Positions 3,967 through 64,000 of a stretch of DNA of 64,000 bases are shown here, piece by piece. The stretch spans positions 10,888 to 74,887 of the forward strand of contig CAYUBQ010000002.1 of assembly GCA_964443135.1 (NCBI GenBank), written 5' to 3'. Origin of the DNA: an uncultured Desulfobacterales bacterium (GTDB taxonomy: Bacteria > Desulfobacterota > DSM-4660 > Desulfatiglandales > HGW-15). The position numbers and the translations under genes were made by a program. The notes under the pieces were generated by a model, which searched no databases, was not told where the DNA came from, and saw only the letters and a program-made list of their open reading frames with translations. Every line of letters begins with the position of its first letter. Within the stretch, counting starts at the first letter, position 1.

Positions 3967-4049
3967 CGTGATCGCTTCGAAGCGGCCCGGCGGTTCCGCG
4001 GTCTCTTGGCAGACCCTTTCAACCTCAACGAGCTCAGGCGAGCGACAAC

Positions 4050-4857: not shown

Positions 4858-6666
4858 GTGCCCGGAAAGCCCCGACTCCTCTGGCAGCTCTTTCTCACCT
4901 ACCTGCTCATCATCGTTCTGTCCCTGGGCGCCGCGACCTGGTTCGCCGCGAGGACCTTCGACCGGTTCCTCCACGAGCAGTACGCGGCGGACCTGGAGGC
5001 GCGGGCCCGCATCCTGGAGAGCCAGTTCTCCTCCCTGCTCCTCCGAGGCGCCTACGACCGCATCGACCGCCTGGCCAAGGAGATCGGGGAGAAGTCCGCC
5101 ACCCGCGTCACCGTGATCCTGCCTTCCGGCCGGGTGGTCGGCGACACCCACGAGGACCCGGCCGTGATGGACAATCACGCGGACCGGGTGGAGGTGTCCA
5201 GGGCCGTCCGGACCGGGCTGGGCGTGTCCAACCGCTACAGCCGGACCCTGCGGCAGGAGATGATGTACGTCGGGCTCGGCCTCGAGCACGAGTCCGGGCT
5301 CCTCGGCGTGCTCCGGACCGCCGTCCCCTTCACCCCCATCGACCGCGCCATCGGCCGTATGACCTCCAGGGTCCTGCTCGGCGGGATCCTCATCGCCCTG
5401 CTCGCCGCGGGCCTCAGCCTCTGGATCTCCAGGCGTCACTCCCGGCCCCTCGAGGCGATGAAGGAAGGGGCCGAGCGCTTCGCCGCGGGCGATCTGGCCT
5501 TTCGGCTCCCCGTGCCCGACTCCGAGGAGATGAGCGCCCTGGCGGGCGCTCTGAACCGGATGGCCACCGAGCTGGACGAACGGCTCCGGGACATTCGGAG
5601 GCAGCGGAACCAGCTCGAGGCCGTGCTCTCGAGCATGGTGGAGGGCGTCATCGCCCTGGACGTCGAAGAGCGCGTGATCCGGATGAACCGGGCCGCGGCC
5701 CGCATGCTGCAATGCAGCCCGGCCGAGGCGCGCGGGCGGAGCATCCAGGAGGTTTCCAGGAGCAGCGGCCTCCAGCGGTTCGTCGCCGAGGCCCTGGAGA
5801 GCGACGCCCTGGTGGAACGGGACCTGAGCATCTATGCCGAGGGGGACCGGATCGTCCGCGCCCACGGTACCGGTCTCTGGGACGAACGGGGCGCCCGTAT
5901 GGGGGTCCTCATCGTGCTGAACGACATCACCCGGCTGAGGCGGCTCGAGAACGTCCGCCGGGACTTCGTGGCCAACGTGAGCCACGAGATCAAGACGCCC
6001 GTCACGGCGATCCGGGGGTTCGTGGAAACGCTTCGGGAGATGGCGCCGGGAGAGGAGCCTGAGAACAACCGCAGATTCCTGGAGATCATCGCCCGGCACG
6101 TGGAGCGGCTGGAGGCCCTGCTGGAGGACCTGCTCGATCTCTCCCGGATCGAGGAAGAGGAGGAGGCCGGGGGCATCGGGCTCCGGTCCGGGCATTTGGC
6201 GGACGTCCTCCAAGGGGCGGCCGGGATGGTGAGGGAGAAGAACGGGGTGCGGGAGGACCCGTTTCGCATCGCCTGCCCGCCCGACCTCCTGGTCCCCATG
6301 AACCCGATCCTCCTGGAGCAGGCCTTCGTGAACCTCCTGGAGAATGCCGTCAAGTACAGCCCCCCGGGAAGCGAGGTGCACGTCTCCGCCGCAAGGGCCG
6401 AAGGCGAGGTCGTGGTGCGGGTCGAGGACCGGGGCGCGGGGATTGCCGCGGAGCACCTGGATCGCATCTTCGAGCGCTTCTACCGGGTGGACCGGTCCAG
6501 GAGCCGAAAGCTGGGCGGGACGGGGCTGGGCCTGGCCATCGTGAAGCACGTGGTCCAGGTCCACGGGGGACGCGTGGAGGTGGAGAGCATCCCGGGCAAG
6601 GGAAGCACGTTCACGGTCCGGCTGGGAATCGCCGGGGAGGCCTCCCCCTCGGTCTCGACGAGATAG
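4858..6666 (+). CDS. PhoR-like sensor histidine kinase (2 TM, periplasmic domain, HAMP, PAS, HisKA, HATPase_c)
   Basis: RDFVANVSHEIKTPVTAIRGF H-box, plus NLLENAVKYS, DRGAGI and GGTGLGLAIVKH boxes. I prefer the GTG 4858 start, with AAGGAG at 4842-4847, over the track start at 4801. Confidence 0.88.
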   Translation: MPGKPRLLWQLFLTYLLIIVLSLGAATWFAARTFDRFLHEQYAADLEARARILESQFSSLLLRGAYDRIDRLAKEIGEKSATRVTVILPSGRVVGDTHEDPAVMDNHADRVEVSRAVRTGLGVSNRYSRTLRQEMMYVGLGLEHESGLLGVLRTAVPFTPIDRAIGRMTSRVLLGGILIALLAAGLSLWISRRHSRPLEAMKEGAERFAAGDLAFRLPVPDSEEMSALAGALNRMATELDERLRDIRRQRNQLEAVLSSMVEGVIALDVEERVIRMNRAAARMLQCSPAEARGRSIQEVSRSSGLQRFVAEALESDALVERDLSIYAEGDRIVRAHGTGLWDERGARMGVLIVLNDITRLRRLENVRRDFVANVSHEIKTPVTAIRGFVETLREMAPGEEPENNRRFLEIIARHVERLEALLEDLLDLSRIEEEEEAGGIGLRSGHLADVLQGAAGMVREKNGVREDPFRIACPPDLLVPMNPILLEQAFVNLLENAVKYSPPGSEVHVSAARAEGEVVVRVEDRGAGIAAEHLDRIFERFYRVDRSRSRKLGGTGLGLAIVKHVVQVHGGRVEVESIPGKGSTFTVRLGIAGEASPSVSTR

Positions 6667-8911: not shown

Positions 8912-10003
8912 CGGGGACGGGGATAAATTCATTACTTGACAGGCCGATCCGGGGTTTGCTAAGAACGATCATGCCCAGAAAATCACGCATTGACACGCCG
9001 GAGGCGCTTCATTTCATCACCGTACGGGGCATCGAGGGCAGAAGGACTTTCCGGGACGACGCGGACCGGGTCAACTTCCGTGATCGACTTGCGCGGATCG
9101 TCACCGACACGAACACGACCTGCTTTGCCTGGGCCCTGATGCCGGACCACGCGCACCTGCTTCTGAGGACCCGGCACGGATCCCTCGCCATGGTGATGCG
9201 ACGGCTGCTCACAGGGTACGCCATCACGCACAACCGGCGGCACGGCCGCCACGGCCCCGTGTTCCTGGATCGCTACCGCTCCGTTCTCTGTCAGGAGGAG
9301 CGCTACCTCGTCGAGCTCGTCCGCTACATCCACCTCAACCCTCTCCGCGCCGGGGTCGTCCCGGACCCGGGTCGACTGGAGACCTACGCCTATGCCGGGC
9401 ACGGTGCCCTGGCCGGCCGGCTGGACTGCCCCTGGCAGGAGGTGCGGACGGTCCTCTCCCGGTTCGGCGAGCGGTCCGAAACGGCCCGCAGGGCCTACCT
9501 CTCCTACGTGCAGGAGGGGGTCTCCCTGGGTCGACGACCGAACCTGACCGGCGGCGGGCTCGTGCGCAGCCTCGGCGGCTGGGAGCAGGTCAGGGAGAGC
9601 CGGCGACGGGGGGAGAGCCCCCAGGGCGACGAGCGGATCCTGGGAGATCCGGACTTCGTCCGGAACGTGCTCGACCGGGCCGGGGAGCGGCTCCACCCCA
9701 GGGACGCCCTGAGCCGGGGGGGAATGGACCTCGCCCGTCTCGCGGAGCGGGCTGCGGAGGCGTTCGGCGTGACGCCGGAGGAGCTGCTCCGCCCGGGCAA
9801 GTACCCGAAGACCGTGAAGGCCCGAAGCGTTTTCTGCTACTGGGCCGTCCGCAAGCTCGGGTACACGGCCACGGGGCTGGCCGGGCGGCTCGGGCTGACC
9901 CAGCCCGCCGTGAGCATCTCGGTCCGCCGTGGGCGGAAGCTCGCACAGGAGTTGAAACTGGGAATCGGGTGAGGACCTTTTTATGAATTCATTCCCGTCC
10001 CCG
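8912..10003 (+). mobile_element. RAYT cassette: tyrosine (HUH) transposase gene bracketed by 21-bp imperfect inverted repeats
   Basis: The left repeat is CGGGGACGGGGATAAATTCAT (8912-8932). The right repeat is ATGAATTCATTCCCGTCCCCG (9983-10003), whose reverse complement CGGGGACGGGAATGAATTCAT matches 19/21. Both flank the gene and its own TTGACA-N18-TAAGAA promoter-like site. Confidence 0.6.
8971..9972 (+). CDS. REP-associated tyrosine transposase (IS200/IS605-type Y1/HUH fold) fused to a DnaA-domain-IV-like C-terminal HTH
   Basis: HUH motif MPDHAHLLL and catalytic-Tyr motif LVRYIHLNPLRAGVV. C-terminal KARSVFCYWAVRKLGYTATGLAGRLGLTQPAVSISVRRG resembles the DnaA C-terminal DNA-binding domain. 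Start at ATG 8971 inside track ORF 8677..9972. Confidence 0.85.
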   Translation: MPRKSRIDTPEALHFITVRGIEGRRTFRDDADRVNFRDRLARIVTDTNTTCFAWALMPDHAHLLLRTRHGSLAMVMRRLLTGYAITHNRRHGRHGPVFLDRYRSVLCQEERYLVELVRYIHLNPLRAGVVPDPGRLETYAYAGHGALAGRLDCPWQEVRTVLSRFGERSETARRAYLSYVQEGVSLGRRPNLTGGGLVRSLGGWEQVRESRRRGESPQGDERILGDPDFVRNVLDRAGERLHPRDALSRGGMDLARLAERAAEAFGVTPEELLRPGKYPKTVKARSVFCYWAVRKLGYTATGLAGRLGLTQPAVSISVRRGRKLAQELKLGIG

Positions 10004-11986: not shown

Positions 11987-11987
11987 A

Positions 11988-12070
11988 GATCCGGGGACAC
12001 CATACTTATTTCGTTCGCCCCTCGAGGGCAATGGACTCATCCCATGAAATAAGTATGGTGTCCCCGGATC
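11988..12070. repeat. perfect 25-bp inverted repeat (GATCCGGGGACACCATACTTATTTC) with a 33-nt spacer, between convergent genes
   Basis: The left arm at 11988-12012 equals the reverse complement of the right arm at 12046-12070. The spacer contains the 10-nt palindrome CCCTCGAGGG. Confidence 0.9.
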
Positions 12071-12085
12071 TTGTCCCCGGATCTT
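12060..12085. repeat. 13-nt tandem duplication GTCCCCGGATCTT x2 at the right edge of the inverted repeat
   Basis: 12060-12072 and 12073-12085 are identical. The second copy overlaps the MATE stop codon (12084-12086). Confidence 0.85.
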
Positions 12086-19862: not shown

Positions 19863-20945
19863 ATGCCCAGAGCCTCCAGAATCGACGCGCCGGGCGCGCT
19901 CCACCACGTCACGGCCCGGGGAATCGAGCGGCGAAGAATCTTCGAGGCGGACGCCGACCGGGAGGATCTTCTCCACCGCCTCGGAACCCTCCTCCCCGAG
20001 AGCGGCACGACCTGCCTCGCCTGGTGCCTGATGCCCGATCACTTCCACCTCCTCCTGGAGACCGGCACGGTGCACCTCTCCACGGTCATGAGACGTCTCC
20101 TGACCGGATATGCCGCGGGGTTCAACCGGCGGCACGGCAGGAGAGGCCCTCTCTTCGGGGGTCGGTTCCGATCGGTCCTGTGCCAGGAGGAGACCTTCCT
20201 GCTGCCGCTGGTGCGCCACCTCCACCTGAACCCGCTGAGGGCCGGTCTGGTCGACGGCCTGGAGGGGTTGGAGGCCTATCCCTACACGGGTCACGGTGCA
20301 CTGGTGGGGAGGGCGGCGGTCCCGTGGCAGGAGACCGGCCGCGTCCTGGATCGATTCGGCGGGAACGGCCGGTCGGCCGCGGCCCACTACCGCGCCTTCG
20401 TCGCCCGTGGTGCGGCCCTGGGAAGGCAGCCCGACCTGACCGGGGGCGGGCTGGTTCGAAGTGCGGGCGGCTGGAGCCGGCTCAAGGCCCTTCGCAGGCG
20501 CAACGCGGATCCGGTCGGAGACGAGCGGATCCTGGGGGACAGCGACTTCGTGCAGCAGACCCTGGCCCGGGCGGGCGAGAACCTGGAACGGAGGACGCGG
20601 CGGACCCTGGAAGGGGTGACCCTGGAACGGATCGCCTCCAGGGTGGCGGCGCTCTGGGGCATGGAGGATGCCGAGGTCTGGGCCCCGGGCAGGCAGCGCC
20701 GCCGCGTGGAGGCGCGCAGCGTCCTCTGCTACTGGGCGGTGCGGGAGCTCGGTTTCACCATGACGGACCTGGCCCGAAGGCTCGACCTCTCGGTCCCCGC
20801 CGTGAGCAAGTCGGTGCTTCGGGGGGAACGGCTCGTGAGAGAACGGGACCAGGGGCTTCGGGGACCCCCGGCCGCTCAGGCGGGCGGGGGTGATCCGTCT
20901 CAGTCGAACGGGCCTTCCGGCAAGCCCGCTCCGATTCGTTCTTGA
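19863..20945 (+). CDS. RAYT paralogue (HUH fold + DnaA-domain-IV-like HTH) with His at the catalytic-Tyr position
   Basis: Collinear with the gene at 8971 for at least 130 residues (MPRxSRIDxP...MPDHFHLLL...). The motif reads LVRHLHLNPLRAGLV where copy 1 has LVRYIHLNPLRAGVV (CAC at 20217-20219 versus TAC at 9325-9327). Confidence 0.85.
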   Translation: MPRASRIDAPGALHHVTARGIERRRIFEADADREDLLHRLGTLLPESGTTCLAWCLMPDHFHLLLETGTVHLSTVMRRLLTGYAAGFNRRHGRRGPLFGGRFRSVLCQEETFLLPLVRHLHLNPLRAGLVDGLEGLEAYPYTGHGALVGRAAVPWQETGRVLDRFGGNGRSAAAHYRAFVARGAALGRQPDLTGGGLVRSAGGWSRLKALRRRNADPVGDERILGDSDFVQQTLARAGENLERRTRRTLEGVTLERIASRVAALWGMEDAEVWAPGRQRRRVEARSVLCYWAVRELGFTMTDLARRLDLSVPAVSKSVLRGERLVRERDQGLRGPPAAQAGGGDPSQSNGPSGKPAPIRS

Positions 20946-30205: not shown

Positions 30206-30311
30206 TGACGCATTCGCAAAAACCCGCTCACGCACCGCTGGGGACGATATCACCGGTTCATCTCCCAGGGACAGATCTCGAGGACACGGGCTTTTGTACG
30301 ACTCCATCAAG
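30206..30311 (+). repeat. copy B of the ~106-nt intergenic repeat family
   Basis: Fills nearly the whole gap between the aminotransferase stop (30314) and the SBP leader. Here it is in the opposite orientation relative to the flanking genes compared with copy A. Confidence 0.8.
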
Positions 30312-33101: not shown

Positions 33102-33152
33102 AGCGGTTCTGCATCGCTCTTTACCGTGAAAATACCCCTCGGTGGGCCGGGC

Positions 33153-33222
33153 GTAGGGCGGCATTTCATATGCCGCCGCAAGGTTGGCGACAAGCACGGC
33201 GGGGTGTAAAACCCCGCCCTAC
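33153..33222. repeat. REP-like doublet: two GTAGGGCGG-headed hairpins in inverted orientation
   Basis: 33153-33177 is GTAGGGCGGCATTTCATATGCCGCC. The reverse complement of 33198-33222 is GTAGGGCGGGGTTTTACACCCCGCC. Each folds into its own 7-8-bp hairpin. Confidence 0.6.
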
Positions 33223-33343
33223 GAAAACCCCTGTTTTCATCAGCGGGGGTGACCGGACGCCGGTCATGGACGTTTGAACCGAAACCCCGCCCGTCTGGAC
33301 AGGCCCCGCATCCTGCCGCCTGCGCTTCCGGAGGTTCGTGCTC

Positions 33344-61237: not shown

Positions 61238-61436
61238 GGAAATCCCGGCGGAAGGAGGTGCCCCGGAAAGCCTCGTTCGATCCAAAACCTAATGGTTTTC
61301 TTCCGTGATTGTCAACGAATTCAGCTTGCAACCGAATCGGGTCGAGCCTCCGGTTTCCCCGCCTTGTCAAACCCGCCGCGATCTTCTAGGGTGGACGGAG
61401 TCGAACGCCCGCCCCGGGACGACGGAGGAAAGAGCC

Positions 61437-62144
61437 ATGGAAGCGGACAACCACACGGGCGGGAATCCGTCATCAGACCCCTTTACGGTGCTGGCCGATC
61501 TCCTTCCCCCGGGGCTCGAGCTGGTCCTCACCCCGGAGGAGGAGGCCGTGGTCCGGGACGCGCTCGAGGAGCCGATCGCCCTGGCGGCGCGGCCCCTTAT
61601 GGTGCAAAAGGCTCTGGCCGTGGCCGCCGCCGCCCACCGGGGCCAGGTGCGGAAAGGCTCGGCGCGGCCCTACATCCTCCATCCCGTGGCCGTGGCCCAG
61701 CTCCTCGTCGAGGCCGGGTGCGGGGACGAGGTGATCGCAGCCGGGCTCCTCCACGACACCCTGGAGGACACGAGCCTGACCCTCGGGGAGCTCCGGGACC
61801 AGTTCGGAGCAAAGGTTGCCAGCGTCGTGGCCGGCTGCAGCGAGCCCCACAAGTCGGTCCCCTGGGAGAAGCGGAAGCGACACACCCTCGTGACGCTGAA
61901 AGCCGCGCCCTGGGAGGTGCGGGTGGTCACCTGTGCGGACAAGCTGGACAACCTGCTCTCCCTGTCCGTGGACCTCGAGGAGCAGGGCGACGCCCTGTGG
62001 GGCCGTTTCTCGAGGGACCGGGACGACCAGGCCTGGTACTACCGCGCCGTCCTGGAGCGCCTTTCCGAAGGCCCCGAGCTGTACGATCCCGGGCTGGAGC
62101 TCCTCCGCCAGCTCCGCCGGGCCGTAGGGGACGTTTTTGCATAA
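61437..62144 (+). CDS. HD-domain protein, RelA/SpoT-type (p)ppGpp hydrolase fold (small alarmone hydrolase-like)
   Basis: AAAAHRGQVRKGSARPYILHPVAVAQLL...IAAGLLHDTLEDT. Start at MEADNH (61437) with GGAGGA upstream. The last five codons and the stop lie in repeat e. Confidence 0.8.
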   Translation: MEADNHTGGNPSSDPFTVLADLLPPGLELVLTPEEEAVVRDALEEPIALAARPLMVQKALAVAAAAHRGQVRKGSARPYILHPVAVAQLLVEAGCGDEVIAAGLLHDTLEDTSLTLGELRDQFGAKVASVVAGCSEPHKSVPWEKRKRHTLVTLKAAPWEVRVVTCADKLDNLLSLSVDLEEQGDALWGRFSRDRDDQAWYYRAVLERLSEGPELYDPGLELLRQLRRAVGDVFA

Positions 62145-62153
62145 TTGCATAAC
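62127..62153 (+). repeat. 27-nt repeat, copy e (GGGGACGTTTTTGCATAATTGCATAAC)
   Basis: Identical core to copies f and g (which are inverted). Contains the TAA stop of the HD gene (62142-62144). Confidence 0.95.
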
Positions 62154-62190
62154 GCGACCCCTTCCCATCCCTCCGGTCTGCCGAGCCATC

Positions 62191-62217
62191 GTTATGCAAT
62201 TATGCAAAAACGTCCCC
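62191..62217 (-). repeat. 27-nt repeat, copy f (inverted)
   Basis: GTTATGCAATTATGCAAAAACGTCCCC is the exact reverse complement of copy e. Copies e and f form a 27-bp stem with a 37-nt spacer. Confidence 0.95.
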
Positions 62218-62237
62218 TGCGATCGGCCCGTGCTTGC

Positions 62238-62264
62238 GTTATGCAATTATGCAAAAACGTCCCC
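62238..62264 (-). repeat. 27-nt repeat, copy g (inverted, direct with f)
   Basis: Exact third copy. It encodes the last residues (GRFCIIA) and the TAA stop (complement of 62239-62241) of the molybdopterin oxidoreductase. Confidence 0.95.
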
Positions 62265-64000
62265 CAGTTTTTGACAGAATCTTCTCGGGGGTGATGGGGA
62301 GGTCCCGGATCCTCACGCCCACGGCGTCGTACACGGCGTTGGCGACGGCGGACGCCACGCAGACCATACTGCCCTCCCCGACGCCCTTGGCGCCGAAGGG
62401 ACCGGTGGGCTCGCGGGACTCCACAATGACGGCGTCGAGCTCGGGCACGTCCACGGATCGCAGCAGCCGGTAGTCCCTGAGGCTCCCGTTCCGGACCTTC
62501 CCCTTCTCGAGGACCAGCCCCTCGGTGAGGGCCCACCCGATGCCCATGACGCCCCCGCCGGTGATCTGCCCCTCGACCAGGTCCGGGTTGACGGCCCGGC
62601 CCACGTCGAACGCCCCGGTGAGCCGGACCACCCGCACCTCCCCCGTGTCCGTGTTCACCTCGACCTCGGCGAAGTGCGCGCCGTAGTACCCGGGCATGGA
62701 GGGGGCCACGCCGGAGAAGGTCTCCACGATCTGCTCGCAGCGGGCCATGTCCGTGATCTGGGTCTTGCGCATGAGGTCCGCCACGAAGAGGCCGTGCTCC
62801 GGGTCTTCCCGGTCGTGGATCCAGCTCTTTCGGATCTCCAGGTCCTCGGGGGGAACGCCCAGCTCCGCGGCGGCAGACTCGAGGATCCGCCTCCGGGCCT
62901 TCCCGGACGCCTTTTGTACGGCGAGCCCGCCGCAGTAGGTCTGACGGCTGCCGTGGGTGCCGCCGTCCAGGGGCGTCACGGAGGTGTCGGTGGGCGAGAG
63001 GCCGATCTTCTCCATCTCGATTCCCAGCACCTCCGAGGCGATCTGGGCGAGCGCCGTCCGGTTGCCCTGCCCGTCGTCCGCGGCCGCGGTCACCAGTCCG
63101 ACCGTGCCGTCCGCGTGGATCATGACCGTGGCGGAGGCGGGGTCGGGCAGGCCCCGGGCCGCGCCGGTCCCGTGGAGGAGCACGGCCATCCCGCGTCCCC
63201 GCTTCACGGGGCCCCGGGCCGCCTCCCGGTTCAGCGCGGCATTCCAACCGAACACCCGGCCCCCTTTCTCCAGGCATTCCTCGAGGCCGTTGCTGCGGAT
63301 CTCGTCGTCGAAGACCGGATCGATCCGGCCGAGGCGGCGGTAGTTCTTCAGCCTGAACGCCACCGGGTCCATCCCCAGCTCCCGGGCGATCATGTCCATC
63401 TGGGACTCCTGGGCGAAGTTCATCTGGGGGTTGCCGTACCCGCGGAACGCACCGCCGGGGCTCGTGTTGGTGAAGACCGCGGCCGCCTGAAAATCCACGT
63501 TGGGAATGTCGTAGAGCCCCACGCCGGTGGAGAGGCAGTCCGCGAGGACGCCGATGTAGTGGGTGCCGTATGCGCCGGCGTCCGCGAGGATTTTGATCTC
63601 GTTCGCCGTCAGGACGCCGTCCCGGGTGACGCCGGTCCTGAGATCGACGGTCATGGGGTGCCGGGACTCCGTGGCGGTGAGCTCCTCCCTCCGGCTGAAG
63701 GAGATCCTGACAGGACGCCCGGTCTTTTTGGACAGGCTGCAGCACAGGGTCTCCAGCCCGTGCACCAGGCCACAGCGGCCGCCGAAGGACCCTCCCGTGT
63801 GAGGCTTGACGATCCGGACCCGGTTCATGGGGAGACCCAGGGCGCCCGAGAGATACATCTGGCTCCAGTGGGGCAGCTGCGTGGACGAGTAGACCGTCAG
63901 GCGCCCGTCCGCCCCGTAGTCCGCCAGGCAGGTCCCGATGGGCTCCAGGGGCGTGTGCTTCTGCTTGGAGGTGTGAAAGCGGTTCTCGAGAACCAGGTCG
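62239..64000 (-). CDS. xanthine dehydrogenase/aldehyde oxidase-family molybdopterin-binding subunit; N-terminal part lies beyond the window end
   Basis: The frame stays open upstream of the track Met (63858) to position 64000 (...ENRFHTSKQKHTPLEPIGTCLADYGADGRLTVYSSTQLPHWSQMYLSGALGLP...VRIVKPHTGGSFGGR). Typical MoCo-binding motifs GGAFRGYG and GPFGAKGVGE. Confidence 0.88.
   Translation of the reverse strand, partial: DLVLENRFHTSKQKHTPLEPIGTCLADYGADGRLTVYSSTQLPHWSQMYLSGALGLPMNRVRIVKPHTGGSFGGRCGLVHGLETLCCSLSKKTGRPVRISFSRREELTATESRHPMTVDLRTGVTRDGVLTANEIKILADAGAYGTHYIGVLADCLSTGVGLYDIPNVDFQAAAVFTNTSPGGAFRGYGNPQMNFAQESQMDMIARELGMDPVAFRLKNYRRLGRIDPVFDDEIRSNGLEECLEKGGRVFGWNAALNREAARGPVKRGRGMAVLLHGTGAARGLPDPASATVMIHADGTVGLVTAAADDGQGNRTALAQIASEVLGIEMEKIGLSPTDTSVTPLDGGTHGSRQTYCGGLAVQKASGKARRRILESAAAELGVPPEDLEIRKSWIHDREDPEHGLFVADLMRKTQITDMARCEQIVETFSGVAPSMPGYYGAHFAEVEVNTDTGEVRVVRLTGAFDVGRAVNPDLVEGQITGGGVMGIGWALTEGLVLEKGKVRNGSLRDYRLLRSVDVPELDAVIVESREPTGPFGAKGVGEGSMVCVASAVANAVYDAVGVRIRDLPITPEKILSKTGGRFCIIA

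Follow-up and report, generated by a model that had tools for sequence, protein, structure and literature searches.

In a 64,000-nucleotide stretch of contig CAYUBQ010000002.1 from an uncultured Desulfobacterales bacterium (hereafter the window), a 27-nucleotide (nt) repeat, GGGGACGTTTTTGCATAATTGCATAAC, occurs in exactly three copies at the meeting ends of two convergent genes, which encode an HD-domain hydrolase and a molybdopterin-binding subunit of the xanthine dehydrogenase (XDH)/aldehyde oxidoreductase family. We conclude with good confidence that each of these 27-mers is a copy, without a gene of its own, of the terminal inverted repeat (TIR) found at the ends of a TIRtron; a Y1/HUH enzyme of the TIRYT type presumably moved them. 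The name TIRtron was given by Di Nocera et al. 2013 (PMC3733652) to genes that resemble those of the REP-associated tyrosine transposases (RAYTs; REP, repetitive extragenic palindromic) and lie between long terminal inverted repeats, and their enzymes were called TIRYTs; many of the TIRs share the outer motif GGGGWSAS, and the moderately abundant TIR families are scattered as single, dimeric and clustered units. Most TIRYTs were placed by Quentin et al. 2018 (PMC6006769) in subclass 2.1 of TnpA_REP, with Bac_DnaA_C-like or helix-turn-helix (HTH)-like C-terminal domains. An earlier note on this DNA, made from its letters alone, described the repeat without this class identification, namely as the terminal repeat of a TIRYT/TIRtron; within that already described class, the element is a new TIR sequence family. 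Our conclusion is carried by the identity of the repeat with the TIRs that flank a TIRYT gene, by insertion polymorphism among relatives, by the replacement of native C-termini, and by a conservation of the TIR that exceeds that of its surroundings. The locus is composed as follows (window coordinates; asterisks are stop codons).

61437 to 62144, plus strand: HD_4-domain hydrolase gene (Pfam), its native tail ...QDLFG replaced by TIR-coded GDVFA*, judging from orthologue alignment and the DNA of relative L008.
62127 to 62153, plus strand: TIR unit e, with its GGGG head on the left, away from the cluster; contributes the final 5 codons of the HD gene together with its TAA.
62154 to 62190, no strand: 37-nt spacer between units e and f, the loop of the predicted e/f hairpin; not conserved at non-orthologous loci.
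62191 to 62217, minus strand: TIR unit f, inverted with respect to e; e and f together form a 91-bp heads-outward dimer.
62218 to 62237, no strand: 20-nt spacer between units f and g, poorly conserved in alignment even with the close relative L009.
62238 to 62275, minus strand: TIR unit g (62238 to 62264) and its A-rich outer flank (GTCAAAAACTG on the minus strand), which encode the XDH tail SKTGGRFCIIA*.
62239 to 64000, minus strand, continuing past the window end: gene of the molybdopterin-binding subunit (MoCoBD) of the XDH/aldehyde oxidoreductase family, its last 11 residues TIR-derived.

The count of three exact copies, one forward (62127-62153) and two inverted (62191-62217 and 62238-62264), had already been given in the earlier note and is borne out by exact matching and by shuffling, as 100 shuffled windows contained no match to the 27-mer even with up to 3 mismatches permitted. 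The unit is an AT-rich island in a window of 67% GC; the octamer TTGCATAA stands twice in tandem in each unit, and all 6 of its occurrences in the window fall inside copies e, f and g, of which e and g have 29 nt in common. The three-copy structure is identical in an independent Logan assembly of the same organism (L016, SRR15425353) and is therefore real; this excludes the assembly artefact that the earlier note had wished to see checked. Copies are also present at the orthologous HD-XDH locus in assemblies from at least three other samples. Many copies are bordered on the outside by an A-rich stretch (AAAAAC/ATA), which may be either part of the repeat or a target preference. A hairpin between this flank (CAAAAAC) and the internal GTTTTTG was considered and rejected, as it folds in one variant, whereas the variants with GTTCTTG and GTATTTG have no compensating changes in the flank. 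We also observed that the outer flanks of copies e and f (62106-62126 and 62218-62238) are partly complementary and both contain CGGGCCG; the 49-nt arms around e/f are 84% complementary, giving a longer predicted stem. This complementarity may be due to chance (roughly p = 0.03) or may be a trace of the origin of copy f.

The transposase partner of the repeat was found in other contigs. A scan of species-representative genomes located the 22-nt core of the repeat in a related Desulfobacterales metagenome-assembled genome (MAG; contigs L001, L003 and L006) and in a short contig (L005), and a metagenome search returned one matching contig (L007). In L005, a gene for a product of 345 amino acids (aa) is bracketed by inverted copies, of which one matches the 27-mer exactly and the second has 2 mismatches (...TTCGATAAC). 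A transposase gene is bracketed in the same way in a 25-kb contig (L017), and a 96.8%-identical transposase with its repeats lies beside an IS110 gene in an unrelated context of 41% GC (L018); in all three contigs the flanking repeats match the 27-mer exactly or depart from it at 1-3 positions. The L018 TIRtron occupies positions 1483-2575, with two extra repeat copies downstream (3977-4003 and 4949-4975), and its context points to horizontal movement of the entire TIRtron. Transposases that are 85-90% identical, with variant repeats, are encoded in L013, L014 and L015, and here the lineage-specific substitutions are common to the two outer repeats of each element. Two of these TIRtrons (L013 337-2280 and L015 788-2730) carry in addition a phd/PIN toxin-antitoxin pair. 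On one side of the pair is a degenerate inner repeat, overlapping the 3' end of the transposase gene; on the other is the outer repeat, which is intact and adjoins a phosphoglucomutase gene.

The 345-aa product from L005 matches the Pfam family Y1_Tnp. Matches to the NCBIfam model NF047646 (REP-associated tyrosine transposase) have E = 5e-21 and 3e-15, with 75.1 and 56.2 bits against a cut-off of 80, and the C-terminus of the transposase gives a weak match to Pfam Bac_DnaA_C. In a profile of 22 family members the HUH histidines H60 and H62 are invariant and the tyrosine of the YIHxNP motif (Y119) is nearly so. The C-terminal part of this profile matches structures of DnaA domain IV (E = 2e-4); a search of the PDB with a single transposase sequence gave no match, and the profile search matched the DnaA-like C-terminal domain only. 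The family is large, with at least 8000 matches below 1e-30.

These features agree with those of TIRtrons and TIRYTs in several respects: 1) The transposase is a RAYT-like Y1/HUH protein of about 335-345 aa with a Bac_DnaA_C-like HTH C-terminus. 2) The gene lies between long inverted repeats, which are not palindromic and have GGGG at their start. 3) In several elements about 58 nt separate the upstream TIR from the start codon, and the 3' TIR overlaps the gene end. 4) Extra TIR copies exist as singles, dimers and clusters. The present system differs from the described TIRtrons in its TIR, a new family with the head GGGGACGT and a tail of two tandem TTGCATAA octamers; in its hosts, which, judged from the related MAG, are uncultured Desulfobacterales-like bacteria; in the repeated recruitment of the repeat as a gene tail with stop codon; and in the one lineage that has the phd/PIN pair between a degenerate inner and an outer TIR. 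Insertions at or within gene ends that alter C-termini and provide stops and RNA hairpins are also a feature of bacterial miniature inverted-repeat transposable elements and of palindromic elements incorporated into open reading frames, such as the Rickettsia palindromic elements, the Neisseria Correia/NEMIS elements and the enterobacterial ERIC sequences (summarized in part in PMC3733652). Those elements have conserved interiors, or are mobilized by DDE enzymes, or have no known transposase; in contrast, the 27-nt TIR alone is conserved here, and its partner is a Y1 enzyme.

Comparison of the two convergent genes with their homologues shows that the tails of both proteins are coded by the repeat, in agreement with the earlier note, according to which it supplies the C-termini and stop codons of both. 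A unit entered from its GGGG end presents a stop in frames 1 and 3 (GDVFA* and GRFCIIA*) and is open in frame 2, as expected from the earlier count of a TAA in two of three frames from the GGGGAC end; entry from the other end meets no stop in any frame. The HD gene ends within copy e (GGG GAC GTT TTT GCA TAA, GDVFA*) and the MoCoBD gene within copy g (...GGRFCIIA-TAA). HD orthologues without a repeat-coded tail end in ...AVQDLFG, ...ATLFDHGVRS, ...QDLFDQGT or ...ASLFGV, and the ending GDVFA is seen in the three proteins of the HD alignment whose genes enter the repeat. In L008, the HD gene keeps its native QDLFG, and its TAG stop lies directly against a degenerate repeat; relative to this sequence the HD gene of the window lacks 16-17 nt, so that its frame continues into the repeat. 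The repeat-coded D-V-F happens to resemble the native D-L-F and retains the phenylalanine found in every sequence of the HD alignment, and this mimicry probably explains why the variant is tolerated. The XDH-family protein ceases to resemble 150 representative homologues at ...PITPEKIL; after PEKIL the homologues continue with (K/E)AL and 3-15 further residues, whereas the window protein continues with SKTGGRFCIIA* from copy g and its A-rich flank. Hence, the repeat-free homologues of both proteins end differently, and the possibility raised in the earlier note, that orthologues without the repeat might have the same C-terminal residues, does not hold. The XDH-family gene of L008 ends in GDVAA*, from a different frame of a different copy.

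Other genes end in this repeat family as well, including mutY in L007, the phosphoglucomutase gene in L005, L012 and L017 (and, as GDVLA*, in L013), and one gene of unassigned function in L013. The TIRYT transposase gene itself ends in the repeat, read from the other side (...ELCKNVP*).

Relatives of the organism differ in where the repeat is present and in how many copies. A heads-outward dimer fills the 3' end of mutY in L007, where the protein ends ...KLGDVFA*; the orthologous site is empty in L006, where mutY ends ...KASS* and overlaps the convergent gene. At the HD-XDH locus there are two degenerate copies in L008, three perfect ones in the window and four in L009, nested as an inner and an outer pair, while in L011, which is more distantly related, the HD gene is followed by no copy and an exact dimer stands 570 nt further on. 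Upstream of a gene with FHA/PAS/GAF/SpoIIE domains (in the alignment; about 61330-61385 in the window), L003 carries the 27-mer at its positions 1-27. In L008 and L011 the head of another GGGG-headed repeat, GGGGTCAGGTCTTGAATTTTGAC, falls at that very coordinate; only a degenerate remnant is found at this site in the window. The alignment suggests that one repeat can take the place of another at a head already present.

Away from a transposase gene, copies form the cluster of three in the window, that of four in L009, and dimers in L006, L007 (two), L008 and L011, and single copies stand at contig ends in L001 and L003. The dimers, known from at least five independent loci, all have their GGGG heads outward, like a TIRtron without its gene. 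Between the orthologous dimers of L006 and L007 the repeats are identical at 53 of 54 positions, the spacer at about 89%, and the outer flanks contain insertions and deletions. As spacers and flanks diverge more than the repeat, the conserved unit is the repeat alone, which is presumably also the unit that is recognized. The repeat was absent from plasmid and phage collections and from viral contigs. An exact 22-mer in common with it, ACGTTTTTGCATAATTGCATAA, is present at two homologous loci of Bacteroidaceae MAGs (L002 161-182 and L004 3054-3075); these were rejected as family members, as they have no GGGG head and no Y1 gene nearby, and the match is probably a coincidence in AT-rich DNA.

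A host regulatory or protein-binding site that stays in place rather than moves, such as an operator, a DnaA-box-like site or a sigma-54-like -24/-12 element, would account for the perfect conservation of the 27-mer across assemblies whose flanking proteins are 74-90% identical, for one pair of copies that lies between divergent genes (a cyclase gene and mutY), and for the GG-N10-GC spacing read by eye. It would also fit the two tandem tail boxes, TTATGCAA(A/T), which resemble the DnaA box TTWTNCACA. We nevertheless hold this explanation to be improbable, since the copies are mostly at gene 3' ends and within coding tails, their presence and number vary at orthologous sites, and inverted copies bound a transposase gene in three different genomic contexts. 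Furthermore, a sigma-70-like promoter scan was empty, and the face-to-face orientation of the units is odd for promoters. A sigma-54 promoter was rejected specifically, given copies in coding 3' ends that face each other and flank a transposase gene. With regard to DnaA, the tail can be read as two boxes (TTATGCAAA against TTWTNCACA), and the copies account for three of the four TTWTNCAMA matches in the window. As a general rule this likeness fails, as the TIR tails of two other TIRYT lineages (L019 and L020) have no boxes; from sequence it is suggestive given the DnaA-like domain of the transposase, and it may be a coincidence.

The REP/BIME/REPIN-RAYT systems (Nunvar 2010; Bertels and Rainey 2011, PMC3116915) share with the present system a homologous N-terminal transposase domain; inverted pairs of short units that lie mostly 3' of genes and between convergent genes and can form long hairpins; and a unit sequence that co-varies with the associated transposase. 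A classical system of this type, in which palindromic units tagged with GTAG replicate as a doublet through a single-domain RAYT, would explain the association with a RAYT-like gene (the NF047646 matches given above), the inverted doublets between convergent genes, and the GTAG that precedes copy e and the L005/L017 copy. Yet, of about 27 copies, only 3 (copy e, its L009 orthologue and the L005 copy) have GTAG in front of the head; most have YA there. A single unit folds weakly as DNA (-3.2 kcal/mol, z -2.2), and even this hairpin is absent in the transposase-flanking TTCGATAAC variant; hence, the units are not REP-type palindromes. The doublet spacers are unrelated between loci, the copy number is low, and the transposase, at 333-345 aa, has an extra HTH DNA-binding domain and falls below the RAYT cut-off. 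The classical REP/REPIN explanation is thus largely refuted, and we rate its chances lower still than those of a regulatory site.

A miniature inverted-repeat transposable element derived from a DDE-type insertion sequence would bring both TIRs and target-site duplications. The 27-nt terminal inverted repeats with their heads outward, and outer flanks that are often A-rich or end in TA, are in keeping with it, as is a possible short duplication (TCA or TCAAA) at the mutY insertion of L007, which is the one filled/empty pair; the other copies show no consistent duplication. The copies have no conserved interior, no coding partner other than a Y1/HUH transposase turned up between such TIRs, and the plasmid, phage and viral collections gave no match, so that this origin appears yet more remote. 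Least credible of all is an assembly artefact or an invertible-DNA switch, the former being contradicted by the identical independent assembly and by the copies at orthologous loci of at least three other samples, and the latter by the lack of a recombinase gene nearby and by a 37-nt segment too short to invert; the contigs that end at a TIR boundary (L001, L003, L010 and L014), which would favor it, show a normal consequence of repeats. In these contigs, which come from different assemblies, the end (L001, L010) or start (L003, L014) falls exactly at, or at most 2 nt from, the repeat boundary, which is likely due to branching of the assembly graph, heterogeneity of the adjacent sequence in the population being the alternative. 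Three other candidates were rejected by eye: a dif/Xer site, as there is no dyad core; CRISPR, as there is no regular array; and Tn3-type ends (GGGG start, 5-bp duplication), as no matching 5-bp duplication lies beside the GGGG.

Several points weigh against the identification of the 27-mers as TIRs moved by a TIRYT. The window itself contains no TIRYT with 27-mer TIRs, its two TIRYT genes having different TIRs or none. The filled mutY site of L007, compared with the empty one, shows a possible 3-5-bp duplication (TCA(AA) against TCA(GA)), which is unexpected for transposition by an HUH Y1 enzyme. The spacers of dimers at non-orthologous loci are no more similar to one another than shuffled sequence, so the dimers are not copies of one master element, and the identification does not by itself account for their heads-outward arrangement. 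The copy number looks low, with 4 exact matches in the related MAG and one metagenome contig. The head GGGGACGT fits the published GGGGWSAS at 6 of 8 positions, the motif being one described for many TIRs, not all. Finally, we know of no TIRYT that has been biochemically demonstrated to move TIRs.

TIRtrons and TIRs of other families are present elsewhere in the window:

8913 to 10002, plus strand: complete TIRtron of a different TIR family, with a TIRYT gene at 8971-9972 and inverted GGGGACGGG(G/A)AT(A/G)AATTCAT repeats.
11993 to 12065, no strand: TIR dimer of a third family (GGGGACACCATACTTATTTC), heads outward, with a head that fits GGGGWSAS at 8 of 8 positions.
19863 to 20858, plus strand: second TIRYT gene, 56% identical to the first.

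The TIRYT of the complete TIRtron has 333 aa, and the upstream repeat lies 58 nt from its start codon. The earlier note had seen the GGGGACG head at the flanks of this gene (8912 and 10003, there called RAYT-1), and the head does flank the transposase gene. For the second TIRYT gene no recognizable flanking inverted repeats were found, and it may be a decayed or domesticated copy. The dimer of the third family has the head GGGGACAC and a 33-nt spacer and follows directly on a LysM/transglycosylase-like gene; a 13-nt tandem duplication, TGTCCCCGGATCT, comes after the right end of the dimer (region 11987-12084). The earlier note had likened the geometry of this inverted repeat (11988-12070 there, 11987-12071 in our reading) to that of copies e and f while calling its sequence unrelated; the heads-outward geometry is indeed alike, but the GGGGAC head is shared. 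A further supposed instance of the head followed by an AT-rich core, at 30240, turns out to be no more than the heptamer GGGGACG, of which the window has 45 occurrences. Across five TIRYT lineages that are 50-60% identical, including the window element, L019 and L020, the GGGGACG head is common and the remainder of the repeat unrelated; thus, the head is family-wide and the tail lineage-specific. The window also has, at 33152-33223, a classical-looking GTAG-tagged REP doublet, of which the two different palindromic units (GTAG-GGCGGCAT..ATGCCGCC and GTAG-GGCGGGGT..ACCCCGCC) are inverted and 18 nt apart; therefore the genome holds both REP-type and TIR-type repeats.

The potential 27-bp stem of copies e and f with its 37-nt spacer, pointed out in the earlier note, is recovered as the predicted hairpin that dominates the fold of both strands (-83.9 and -93.2 kcal/mol, z -7.8 and -8.1). 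A scan of 61800-62600 found no intrinsic terminator, the e/f stem being AT-rich and not followed by a T run; a sigma-70 promoter scan found none, and Rfam gave no match at gathering thresholds across the whole window. The e/f hairpin may plausibly act at the 3' ends of the transcripts of the two convergent genes as an RNA structure common to both.

The following course of events would account for the locus. The parent element would be a TIRtron, that is, a RAYT-like Y1/HUH gene (the TIRYT, with a DnaA-domain-IV-like C-terminal HTH) between two inverted TIRs with the outer ends GGGGACG. Units of the 27-mer TIR were deposited heads-outward in the narrow interval that separates the convergent HD and XDH genes; they would have been moved or copied in trans by a cognate TIRYT elsewhere in the genome, its HUH domain acting at the conserved head. 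Each insertion cut the host open reading frame by a few codons and gave it a new short tail and stop, because the unit has a TAA in two of the three frames that enter from the head; the resulting 27-bp hairpin may now serve both genes as a 3'-end RNA structure. More tentatively, and as an idea that we hold to be doubtful, the TIR could be bipartite, with the HUH domain using the head and the HTH reading the tail (the TTATGCAA octamers), so that units home to existing heads and act as portable gene-end modules. If so, homing would explain the different TIR families at one coordinate upstream of the FHA gene and the hotspot at the HD 3' end, and the two-frame stops together with the 27-bp hairpin would make the units gene-end modules that the host tolerates or exploits.

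For annotation, these findings imply that tails such as GDVFA* or GRFCIIA* are repeat-derived and not conserved protein features. Repeat units have rewritten the C-terminus and the stop codon in no fewer than five host genes that are unrelated to one another. No new kind of system is revealed; rather, the biochemically unexplored TIRYTs gain a matched transposase/TIR pair with a conserved head, and the behavior of TIRYT repeats gains a well-documented example from uncultured sulfate-reducer-like bacteria, with fast turnover at one locus.

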